A DNA stretch of 64,000 bases from an uncultured Candidatus Binatia bacterium (GTDB lineage: Bacteria; Desulfobacterota; Binatia; UBA9968; JAJDTQ01), in NCBI GenBank assembly GCA_965204505.1, contig CBDBFB010000002.1:2370778-2434777 (forward strand), read 5' to 3'. Position 1 is the first letter of the stretch, and each line of letters starts with the position of its first letter. This document shows, in pieces, positions 50,183 to 52,091 of the stretch. The notes below the pieces were generated by a model, which worked only from the letters and a program-made list of their open reading frames with translations, was not told where the DNA came from and ran no database searches. The position numbers were made by a program, and so were the translations under genes.

Positions 50183-50365
50183 ATGGCTCGGACCACAGAC
50201 TGGGCCCCGGACCAAGCGGCAATTATGATCGGCCATGTACTGGCGCGGGAACGCATTGACACGATTACTGTTCAGAAAAGACGTGGTCTGTGCCCGATCA
50301 GCGGGCGACGCGTGAGAATCGACGGTCGAGTCGCTGAGGAGAATCTCCATGAATGGCATGAATGA
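50183..50365 (+). CDS. Small HTH protein (AlpA/excisionase-like), overlapping the start of the SIR2-like gene by 17 nt
   Basis: MARTTDWAPDQAAIMIGHVLARERIDTITVQKRRGLCPISGRRVRIDGRVAEENL matches the pattern of MerR/AlpA-type HTH_17 regulators. Start chosen at 50183 within the longer ORF 49994-50365. Confidence 0.35.
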   Translation: MARTTDWAPDQAAIMIGHVLARERIDTITVQKRRGLCPISGRRVRIDGRVAEENLHEWHE

Positions 50366-52091
50366 GCATTTGCTGCATCACTTGGCGTCAATCTATGACC
50401 GGGGGCGACTGGTTCCTCTGCTTGGATCGGGAATGTCGAGGCCTGCATGCGTGGACTGGCCTACGTTCGTGGGATGTCTGGAGAAGCAGGCCGACCTTGA
50501 TGGGTCATCCTCGAAAACCGCAGATTGCGCGGACCTCATCTCCCGGGCCGAAGTGGCGATGCGGTATCTTAGGCTTGGCGGCTACGATGTCGCGGCGTGC
50601 GTCGGCAAGGCCGTGTACGCGCAGGACGGAGAAGACTCGGTGCCGTGTCAGACCAACGCGCTCGCGCGTCTGTTCTGGCCGCTGGTATGCACCACAAACT
50701 ACGACGATGTGTTTCTTCGAGCGAAGGTAGCCCTATCAAGTCCTCCGCGCGTCCGCGGCCGCAACTACGACGATTGCCATCGAGTCCTTCAACACCTCCG
50801 TTTCCCGATGGGCGAGACCGTATGGGCGCTACAGGGCTTTCTCGGGCCTCGCGCTGACATTGCGGACGGATTCCAGGGAATCACCGATCTCAAGTCGGAG
50901 ATCGTCGTGGGGCATGCCGAGTACCGCCGGACGGCGAACAGGGAGCCACATTTCCGACGCTGCTTTGCGGAGGTCTTCCGGAATTCGTCGCTTCTGTTCC
51001 TCGGCGCAGGGCTAGCGGAACCCTATTTTCTGAGCCTGTTCGACGAGATCATCGAACTGACCGGTCCGTCCATCAATCCTCACTTCGCGGTCGTCCAGGA
51101 AGGCGAGGTAGACCCCGATTTCATGCGGCGCCGTTTCCACATCGACTGCACGGTCTACAAGCCGGGCGACCATCAATTCGTTTGCGAGTTCTTGACCGCA
51201 CTCGCCGACACGATCGCCGATGATCGGGTCCGCCAGCGGTCCTGGGGCGTCGTCGTGAAGGCGCCAAGAAAGGTTTCGTCAGGTGGGGAAGACGACTTCA
51301 CTGTGGTCCGAGCGAAGTTGCCCGACCCCGATGATCTTCCCGCCAACGAAGCCGTGGCCATCAGCTGTGGGCGTCAATACGACAAGGCAGTGCCGGGGGT
51401 AGAAATTGCGGATTCGCTGGGGTTGGTTGGGGTTCAGCCACGATGGTACGGGGACGAGAAACTATTTTCGACCTTTCTGCGGGACCAAGGGCGCTGCGTT
51501 TACGGTATCACTGCAAGGGAGGGGGACAAAGATGATCGGCGGACGCCACGGGTCGTGAACGAAGCGTTTCGGCGGGCACTCGACATCGTCTGCGGCAAGG
51601 ATTACCAAAGGCTTCACGTGCAGCTATTGGCTGCGGGACCGGACCGGAGCTTCCGTCAATGGATTTCGCTGGTCCAGATGGCGCGAGCCTATGGAGCGTG
51701 GTATCGCAAAGGCACGAAGAACCGCATTCGCGTGTCCGTCTACGTGGTGGACCCGTCTGTGATCACCTTGCTCTGCGGCGGTCATCTCGACTTGGCAGAG
51801 CATCTGGACGACACGTCGCTCAGGGTCGGTGTCATGATCATCCCGACACAGGGACTCGTCGAGCGCTACCTTGAGATCGTTCCTCCGGCGTGCACAGTTA
51901 GGACCATTCTCCACGATCTGCCGACACGGGATGGAGTCACTCACGGGGATCAGTGGCCGCACCTCGAAGTCTACCCTCCAGTCTACCGAGGCACCGAGCC
52001 GGCTCGGGTGCCGTGGAGCTTGGAGACCCCAATCGAAGAACTGGGACTGGTGTCCGGGAGTACGCTCATCGTCGACTACCGTGCCCGGTGA
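50349..52091 (+). CDS. SIR2_2-like (defence-type sirtuin-like NADase fold) protein with an unassigned 280-aa C-terminal domain
   Basis: LVPLLGSGMS (GAGxS-type motif), LVCTTNYDDVFL (TTNYD motif), IVVGHAEY and SLLFLGAGLAEPYFLSLFD (GxSxxD-type motif) follow the order of the Thoeris ThsA/DSR-type SIR2 domain. Residues 300-580 show no motif I can assign. Confidence 0.6.
   Translation: MNGMNEHLLHHLASIYDRGRLVPLLGSGMSRPACVDWPTFVGCLEKQADLDGSSSKTADCADLISRAEVAMRYLRLGGYDVAACVGKAVYAQDGEDSVPCQTNALARLFWPLVCTTNYDDVFLRAKVALSSPPRVRGRNYDDCHRVLQHLRFPMGETVWALQGFLGPRADIADGFQGITDLKSEIVVGHAEYRRTANREPHFRRCFAEVFRNSSLLFLGAGLAEPYFLSLFDEIIELTGPSINPHFAVVQEGEVDPDFMRRRFHIDCTVYKPGDHQFVCEFLTALADTIADDRVRQRSWGVVVKAPRKVSSGGEDDFTVVRAKLPDPDDLPANEAVAISCGRQYDKAVPGVEIADSLGLVGVQPRWYGDEKLFSTFLRDQGRCVYGITAREGDKDDRRTPRVVNEAFRRALDIVCGKDYQRLHVQLLAAGPDRSFRQWISLVQMARAYGAWYRKGTKNRIRVSVYVVDPSVITLLCGGHLDLAEHLDDTSLRVGVMIIPTQGLVERYLEIVPPACTVRTILHDLPTRDGVTHGDQWPHLEVYPPVYRGTEPARVPWSLETPIEELGLVSGSTLIVDYRAR

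Follow-up and report, generated by a model that had tools for sequence, protein, structure and literature searches.

Effectors built on a SIR2 domain are a main route of bacterial immunity based on nicotinamide adenine dinucleotide (NAD+), and they are ancestors or relatives of the human FAM118 proteins. To our knowledge, the known SIR2 effectors use SLOG, STAND, pAgo, HerA or helical sensors, and they keep the HG motif of sirtuins save for Avs5, which carries NG. The gene described here lies at 50349-52091 on the forward strand (stop codon included) of a 64,000-nucleotide stretch, hereafter the window, from an uncultured Candidatus Binatia bacterium (assembly GCA_965204505.1, contig CBDBFB010000002.1, positions 2,370,778 to 2,434,777). 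Its product of 580 residues, for which an identical protein is on record, carries a SIR2 domain with QG at the place of HG, followed by a predicted Macro fold and a predicted ubiquitin-like (Ubl) domain.

The ThsA effectors of the Thoeris systems offer the most direct comparison. In ThsA(SIR2-SLOG) the SLOG domain senses the signal and the ligand changes the quaternary structure, and in ThsA(TM-macro), where TM stands for transmembrane, the Macro domain is a nucleotide sensor that oligomerises the protein upon binding (PMC11204291). Type I ThsA of Bacillus cereus MSX-D12 shares with the window protein a SIRim-type SIR2 domain at the N-terminus, including the motifs GAGxS and TTNxD, and, behind it, a Rossmann-like domain of nucleotide-sensor type. 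It differs in having a SLOG domain, an HG motif and a thsB/TIR partner, whereas the window protein has Macro and Ubl domains, QG and no adjacent thsB. With type II ThsA (Escherichia coli CFT073, TM-macro) only the Macro fold is shared; that protein has TM helices and a ThsB partner, while the window protein has a soluble SIR2 N-terminus and no ThsB. Furthermore, the Macro sequence of the window protein is too divergent for any Pfam match.

Two other groups of SIR2 proteins depart from HG. SirTMs carry Gln instead of the catalytic His, with absolute conservation; they are always linked to a macrodomain, through a shared operon in bacteria and a fusion in fungi, and they are ADP-ribosyltransferases (PMC4518038). 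SpySirTM and the fungal Mfs1 thus resemble the window protein in the Gln-for-His replacement (Gln137 of SpySirTM and Q162 here) and in the obligatory macrodomain link. However, SirTMs belong to the classical sirtuin branch and have a GcvH-L/LplA2 operon and a Zn-macro eraser, whereas the window protein is of the SIR2_2/SIRim type, stands alone and has a Macro domain that appears to lack the hydrolase motifs. PaAvs5-1 (AVAST type 5, SIR2-STAND) provides a precedent for an active NADase without the HG histidine, but its substitute is Asn, and its STAND nucleoside triphosphatase sensor is absent from the window protein.

DSR1 and DSR2 are, like the window protein, single-polypeptide SIR2 effectors with a C-terminal sensing region. 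They are about 1000 residues long and have helical-repeat sensors that bind the phage tail-tube protein, in contrast to the 580 residues and the Macro-Ubl tail of the window protein, and no DSR model of PADLOC matched the window protein. Among the SIRanc proteins FAM118B and FAM118A, FAM118B shares the segments FLFLGxG...(D/E) and HF.LV..G.VD but keeps His206, lacks Macro and Ubl domains and forms a filament with FAM118A. The eukaryotic clade C fusions of SIRim and Macro (Bonhomme et al.) are similar in architecture, as compared by description only, and one published SIR2_2 tree marks "Macro" among its extra domains. In our literature collection, which is incomplete, we found no description of a bacterial SIR2-Macro-Ubl family or of QG in SIRim sirtuins.

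The SIR2 domain and its active-site motifs

A search with the protein returned 275 homologues, most of those listed having 98-99% query coverage and a length of 560-650 residues. The full-length homologues share 28-73% identity with it and come from at least ten bacterial phyla. The GC content at third codon positions (GC3) is 0.71/0.66/0.45 by frame, which is coding-like for a GC-rich sequence. The open reading frame (ORF) is a real and intact gene that defines a family.

Residues 1 to ~292 (50349-51224, forward strand) form a predicted NAD+-binding catalytic domain of the SIR2_2 (SIRim) type, as indicated by Pfam, Foldseek and AlphaFold (AF2). Pfam SIR2_2 (PF13289) matched residues 112-260 (E=2e-15; score 57.6 bits, cut-off 24.5) and was the sole Pfam match of the protein. 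When the family profile was compared with the sequences in the PDB, human FAM118B was the best match (E=1.4e-9), followed by KomC-type SIR2 and ThsA. The full-length AF2 model, built from the family alignment, had a predicted local distance difference test score (pLDDT) of 85.7 and a predicted template modelling score (pTM) of 0.86. Its top Foldseek matches were BcThsA, DSR2, KomC and Avs5 (E=1e-12 to 1e-9); ThsA, DSR2, KomC and Avs5 made up the top 50, and the classical sirtuins and SirTM were not the closest. The best full-length match was BcThsA, with 535 aligned columns (E=5e-12). Residues 1-300 contain no CxxC pair, i.e. they lack the Zn-binding Cys tetrad. The N-terminal domain is therefore a defence-type (SIRim) sirtuin domain, in agreement with the initial annotation, which had classed it so from its motifs; the protein itself is outside every named system, as the profile searches gave SIR2_2 in Pfam but no named defence family in PADLOC or NCBIfam.

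Four motifs follow one another along the domain: GSGMS, a NAD-binding loop of the GAGxS type (residues 26-30, 50424-50438, forward strand), TTNYD with the predicted catalytic Asn117 and Asp119 (residues 115-119, 50691-50705, forward strand), VWALQGF (residues 158-164) and GAGLAEPYF (residues 219-227). In an alignment of 22 sequences with 35-73% identity, all four were ordered and invariant or nearly so, and the earlier description of an ordered GSGMS / TTNYD / GxGLxEPxF series was borne out. G26, G28 and S30 are invariant in the aligned members. Motif counts were taken from 193 full-length family members aligned to the family hidden Markov model; Asn117 was found in 191 of the 193 and Asp119 in 186, with Glu in 5 more. 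A contact with NAD+ has been described for the GAGXS motif (PMC12931631), and the Asn equivalent to Asn117 is essential in FAM118B (N163), SpySirTM (N118; PMC4518038) and PaAvs5 (N110; PMC12931631). The motifs of PaAvs5 run parallel to those of the window protein: GAGXS at 24-28, TTNXD at 108-112, NG at 153-154 and E202 correspond to residues 26-30, 115-119, 162-163 and E224, respectively.

The apparent replacement of the catalytic His within VWALQGF, also pointed out in the initial annotation, was confirmed by the family alignment. Position 162, which follows W-A-(L/I), is Gln in 179 of the 193 members and His in the other 14, and G163 is present in all 193, so that Q162-G163 (50832-50837, forward strand) is a QG variant of the HG motif. 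The 14 members with His are remote relatives, with 28-35% identity to the window protein, and their motif is WALHGF or WAIHGY. Because these members carry the canonical HG, Q162 is fixed at the position of the catalytic His and no cross-family alignment is needed. Its placement fits two further observations: in the model, the Q162-G163 motif ends the strand of residues 157-160, and in the ThsA alignment H152 of BcThsA lies just N-terminal to the shared segment (I/V)V..(D/E)Y.

The acidic residue E224 (51018-51020, forward strand) in the GxGLxEPYF motif co-varies with position 162. The states of positions 162 and 224 were Q/E in 156 members, Q/D in 23, H/D in 14 and H/E in none, and position 224 was the sole other column that differed systematically between the Gln and His groups. 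The association (Fisher's exact test, p=9e-12) takes no account of common descent, and most H/D members have another H/D member as their nearest relative. E224 aligns with the second Asp of the "VDD" segment in FAM118B, taken as D255 by a manual residue count on the printed alignment; D255 has been proposed to contact the NAD ribose hydroxyls beside H206. Since Gln and His alternate, Glu and Asp co-vary with them and H/E never occurs, we infer that the QG/E224 active site was remodelled and not lost, and that it would be functional rather than decayed. PaAvs5-1, with NG for HG, is still an active defence NADase; its N153H variant is partly active and its N153A variant is dead (PMC12931631). 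Together with the SirTMs, it gives QG in a SIRim domain a precedent for activity, if not for one particular chemistry.

The Macro and ubiquitin-like domains

Residues 296-580 had no Pfam match in any of the 20 family members scanned. Profile matches of this region to the PDB reached only uS11 at an E value of about 0.1, which is chance level and was not considered credible. The AlphaFold model of residues 296-580 (pLDDT 85.3, pTM 0.86) matched the macro domains of Venezuelan equine encephalitis virus (VEEV) and macroH2A in Foldseek (E=4e-5, probability 1.00), and the order of its secondary-structure elements agrees with the three-layer alpha/beta/alpha topology of Macro domains. In the predicted structure, the tail is a divergent Macro-fold domain (residues ~296-487, 51234-51809, forward strand) and then a C-terminal ubiquitin-like beta-grasp domain (residues ~488-580, 51810-52088, forward strand) with a conserved G(L/V)(V/I)SGST motif. 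The initial annotation had judged this region by eye not to be Macro-like and had named structure prediction as the check; the prediction contradicts that judgement. A C-terminal SLOG domain, by which type I ThsA is recognised, was also considered and was rejected, the fold of the tail being Macro. The pTM of 0.86 for the full-length model suggests that the three domains are packed as one unit.

Traces of Macro sequence motifs are faint. With hhalign, the family segment HVQLLAAG aligned weakly to Macro loop 2, PLLSAG(IFG), at E=0.03 and in that region only. In a mapping of low confidence, the conserved residues S339, G341, A389/R390, R398, Q425, G430, F435 and R446 are situated at the strand ends that line the cleft. 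Judging from this conservation, the Macro cleft looks constrained, and its ligand need not be plain ADP-ribose; hydrolase activity of the domain is unlikely.

The profile of the Macro-Ubl tail matched only 411 proteins (E<=1e-3) among 1.84 billion cluster representatives, and the match lay at residues ~300-600 in proteins of ~560-650 residues. Of the 247 sequences retrieved, 31 had no detectable SIR2 domain, and all 31 were fragments shorter than 375 residues. An exchange of the Macro-Ubl module onto other effectors was therefore rejected, as across the 1.84 billion representatives it occurs only behind this SIR2 domain. The combination of SIR2, Macro and Ubl is fixed, and the family is a rare one.

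The presence of QG in 93% of the members and the obligatory Macro fusion have their counterparts in the SirTMs, whose Gln-for-His replacement and constant macrodomain link accompany robust transferase activity (PMC4518038). The protein might accordingly be read, as the leading alternative, as a SirTM-like ADP-ribosyltransferase that modifies a specific protein or nucleic acid or itself, the fused Macro domain reading or removing the mark in cis; writer and reader would then be united in one protein that regulates conflict or stress responses. We consider this rather unlikely, given that the SIR2 domain is SIR2_2/SIRim and not class M by sequence or by fold, that no GcvH-L/LplA2-like or other conserved neighbour is present as a target, that the hydrolase signature seems to be missing from the Macro domain, whose closest folds are not of the Zn-macro type, and that His is retained in 14 members whose architecture is otherwise the same. 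A bolder version, in which a SIRim branch independently reached the SirTM solution of Gln-for-His plus macrodomain, would make the protein a single-protein ADP-ribosylation system, not an NAD+ drain, in which the SIR2 domain tags a macromolecule of phage or host, or itself, and the degenerate Macro-Ubl tail reads the tag and thereby governs activity or assembly. This appears unlikely as well; if it were true, the H/D, Q/D and Q/E states, with H/E never seen, would record a stepwise change of chemistry.

Family distribution and genomic setting

Sixty-eight loci of the family were found among 185,579 species genomes, in a patchy distribution over many phyla. In the species-representative genomes they occur in Gamma-, Beta- and Alphaproteobacteria, Binatia, Myxococcota, Planctomycetota, Verrucomicrobiota and Acidobacteriota, and further in Gemmatimonadota, Bacteroidota, Armatimonadota and Actinomycetes. 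All-against-all ORF clustering of 73 loci gave no shared neighbour outside closely related Sorangium genomes. In Pfam and PADLOC scans of 145 ORFs flanking 57 loci, no family was found more than twice, and no TIR, integrase or restriction gene recurred. The flanking ORFs were mostly ordinary (LepA, ROK kinases, subtilases, VWA proteins, phosphatidylserine decarboxylase, Mg-chelatase, DprA, proteases and kinases). Among three close homologues, one is located beside CRISPR-Cas, HicB and AAA_25, the second beside a type ISP restriction-modification enzyme, PLD and transposases, and the third among ordinary genes. An IS5/DUF772 link between the window locus and another locus (L002) was examined and rejected, as the two have no similarity. 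The exclusive Macro-Ubl fusion and the lack of a conserved neighbour indicate a self-contained unit, and the SIR2-Macro-Ubl gene is a stand-alone gene. Of the defence-island context proposed for the locus, the window shows an integrase and a stretch rich in mobile elements. Defence-like surroundings are found for two of the close homologues but not across the 57 loci; they are not a trait of the family.

In seven Sorangium loci (L046, L051, L053, L054, L058, L062 and L067), which hold distant homologues (~28-30% identity), synteny is conserved. In some of these strains a long open frame on the same strand precedes the homologue (e.g. L051, 4461-9911), which may be an N-terminal extension or merely a GC-rich open frame.

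The neighbours bear on the possibility that the protein is an orphan effector of a Thoeris-like system, in which the SIR2 NADase would be governed by the Macro domain as receptor for a signal made by a TIR protein encoded elsewhere. The known forms of ThsA are SIR2-SLOG and TM-macro, and in the window protein the effector domain of the first form is joined to the sensor fold of the second. The full-length Foldseek match to BcThsA over 535 columns and the eukaryotic SIRim-Macro fusions, which were noted and compared with ThsA by Bonhomme et al., point in the same direction. Nevertheless, we regard this explanation as very unlikely. With regard to thsB/TIR, the neighbours in the window are a repeat protein and an integrase; as no family occurs more than twice in the 145 ORFs from the 57 loci, TIR genes do not regularly accompany the family. 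Outside Sorangium no neighbour cluster is conserved, the PADLOC score for ThsA was only 13.7 bits, and the residues that contact ADP-ribose in canonical Macro domains are not kept, according to a low-confidence mapping.

The ordinary flanking genes in most genomes, the syntenic chromosomal setting in the Sorangium strains and the absence of the family from plasmid and phage collections would also suit an accessory enzyme of NAD or ADP-ribose metabolism or regulation in environmental bacteria, without a role in defence and with the integrase as an incidental neighbour. We find this distinctly unlikely. The family is very patchy and rare (411 clusters of 1.84 billion and 68 of 185,579 species genomes), and no conserved operon partner points to a pathway. 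Bonhomme et al. assigned every antiphage SIR2 protein known to them to the SIRim clade and reported a 12-fold enrichment of antiphage systems near bacterial SIRim members. In the window, moreover, the gene is of atypical GC content and lies among decayed fragments of mobile elements. A role in defence is a reasonable hypothesis.

The GC content of the SIR2 gene is 0.61, compared with 0.65-0.70 across most of its surroundings, which is consistent with horizontal acquisition. A Shine-Dalgarno-like GAGGAG at 50336-50341 (forward strand), read from the sequence, precedes the ATG at 50349 by 7 nt. A consensus scan of 49900-52500 gave neither a sigma-70-like promoter nor an intrinsic terminator.

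A 60-codon ORF at 50183-50365 (forward strand) had been taken as a helix-turn-helix gene of the AlpA/Xis type, translationally coupled to the SIR2 gene. The ORF does end 17 nt inside the SIR2 ORF, as described, and its C-terminal half looks faintly like an excisionase helix-turn-helix by eye; a two-gene module of regulator and SIR2 gene is nevertheless highly improbable, and largely refuted. The ORF had no match in Pfam, NCBIfam and PADLOC (E up to 0.1 in all three) or in PHROGs (E up to 1). Among 5.8 billion proteins it had no homologue, and none shares even three 5-residue words with it. The ORF itself is unrecorded while the SIR2 protein is recorded, which indicates that gene calling in the source genome passed it over. 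In its own frame the ORF has a GC3 of 0.57, less than the 0.68 of frame +1, whereas the tested real genes (SIR2, repeat protein and integrase) have an in-frame GC3 of 0.71-0.84, the highest of their three frames. Neither the ORF nor the upstream DNA is conserved beside the homologues at 73% and 54% identity, and no small divergent gene was found upstream that is shared with the close homologues. We judged the ORF unsupported as a gene and treated it as a chance ORF in a low-GC 5' region.

The integrase noted as a neighbour is present. The ORF at 52394-53716 (reverse strand) encodes an apparently intact tyrosine integrase of 440 residues, with Arm-DNA-bind_3 (E=1e-17), a SAM-like domain, Phage_integrase (E=9e-15), a match to PHROG 1 "integrase" (E=9e-46) and the motifs HGLRNAF and EGY in its translation. 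Between the stop codons of the SIR2 and integrase genes lies a fragment of an IS5-family transposase (52107-52400, reverse strand, ~97 residues); it had no Pfam match, but in tblastn it matched 213 plasmid records, of which the listed ones are annotated "IS5 family transposase".

A direct repeat of 67 nt (45292-45357 and 52393-52459, at a spacing of 7102 nt; 89.6% identity, E=1e-18 in blastn) represents the final 28 codons of the integrase. Its right copy (52393-52459) is the 3' end of the integrase gene. Its left copy belongs to a remnant at 45292-45378 (reverse strand) of a related integrase, from which just the final 28 codons are left; residues 413-440 of the intact integrase match 45378-45295 at 68% identity in tblastn. 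The remnant abuts a 150-residue ORF at 45331-45783 (forward strand) resembling the C-terminal half of a multicopper oxidase or nitrite reductase, with weak Pfam matches (E=0.0035 and 0.019). The integrase remnant and the oxidase-like fragment (45295-45783) mark a rearrangement junction. The repeat is thus real and derives from an integrase 3' end, as the initial annotation stated, but it does not form a clean bracket around a defence module. More plausibly, the two copies represent the 3' ends of a pair of integrase genes in tandem, of which one has been deleted almost entirely. The window would then contain two tandem integrative elements, the left one decayed and extending from ~45.3 to 52.4 kb; the decayed element would hold the integrase remnant, the gene fragment, a repeat protein of 1188 residues, the SIR2 gene and the IS5 remnant.

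The 1188-residue protein (46422-49988) contains five tandem repeats of 315 nt (105 residues) at ~46930-48400, 77-90% identical in DNA. It has weak Pfam matches to fn3_6 and LapA, and its C-terminal region is beta-barrel-like by eye. Similar giant proteins of the Calx-beta/cadherin-like kind are encoded at 7496-9544, 12101-13888 and 14512-18735. To the right of the integrase are genes for a DUF4326 protein (54816-55352, reverse strand) and a strawberry-notch-type helicase (AAA_34 and Helicase_C_4; 61164-63869, reverse strand), genes of a kind that suggests an integrative conjugative element.

Other mobile elements are abundant in the window. Two IS66 transposases and one IS110 transposase are located at 9525-11135 (reverse strand), 21598-23208 (forward strand) and 32115-33716 (reverse strand). 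Rfam gave 12 group II intron hits above the gathering score in the 64 kb, all on the forward strand (551-627, 1336-1555, 4979-5555, 30099-32054, 35904-37864, 39693-41653, 55314-55535 and 56404-56586), and at least three reverse transcriptase (RT)/maturase ORFs are intact. The region 35904-41653 contains two identical introns, whose RT ORFs (36336-37712 and 40125-41501) have equal Pfam scores. A TrwC relaxase ORF on the opposite strand (37506-39719, reverse strand) is overlapped by these introns at both ends, which suggests a truncation or disruption of the relaxase. The intron starting at 55314 has its RT ORF in two parts: 55633-56394 covers RVT_1 positions 1-106, and 57131-58051 covers RVT_1 positions 103-204 and GIIM. 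At 56404-56586 there is a further intron 5' domain, which belongs to another D1-D4 class, and 55314-58051 looks like a nested, twintron-like insertion.

Proposed function and significance

We tentatively favour, at a probability of about 0.45, the explanation that the protein is a stand-alone, self-regulated, NAD+-consuming effector of the defence-type sirtuins, carried as cargo by a now-decayed integrative element. The SIR2 domain would bind NAD+ through GSGMS and TTNYD and cleave the nicotinamide-ribose bond, with Gln162 standing in for His and Glu224 providing a nearby carboxylate. The Macro domain, which seems to have lost the hydrolase signature and kept invariant cleft residues of its own, may act as a regulatory binder of an ADP-ribose-like nucleotide or an ADP-ribosylated ligand, and the Ubl domain may be a surface for protein-protein contacts or oligomerisation. 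The Macro-Ubl tail would restrain the enzyme until ligand binding or the sensing of a partner. The trigger would then switch the enzyme on, probably through a change of oligomeric state as in ThsA, and the ensuing depletion of NAD+ would arrest the infected or stressed cell.

Several results weigh against this explanation. The PADLOC scan of the protein gave only noise (LmuA as the best match at E=1e-3, ThsA1 at E=4e-3), no stretch of the protein passed the ThsA1 model by itself, and no NCBIfam model matched it. A Gln at the position of the His goes with ADP-ribosyl transfer, not hydrolysis, in SirTM (PMC4518038), and the N153Q variant of PaAvs5-1 is dead (PMC12931631). In a mapping that is of low confidence and partly manual, the adenine-binding Asp, the Asn of NAAN and the GGG loop of canonical Macro domains are replaced, so that binding of ADP-ribose is not assured. 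Finally, the 145 flanking ORFs showed no enrichment of defence or mobile-element genes, and tblastn searches of plasmid and phage collections gave no homologue.

The family, with ~400 clusters in many phyla, adds a solo SIR2-Macro-Ubl protein in which the effector of type I Thoeris is joined to the sensor fold of type II. Its QG variant of the active site is otherwise known only from the unrelated, ADP-ribosylating SirTMs. The natural covariation of His/Gln with Asp/Glu supplies ready-made mutants for studying the role of the sirtuin His and the balance between NAD+ hydrolysis and transfer. Should the protein be active, it would serve as a compact one-gene tool and join the defence catalogue as a new entry; if it proves to be an ADP-ribosyltransferase, reversible ADP-ribosylation would be extended into the SIRim clade.

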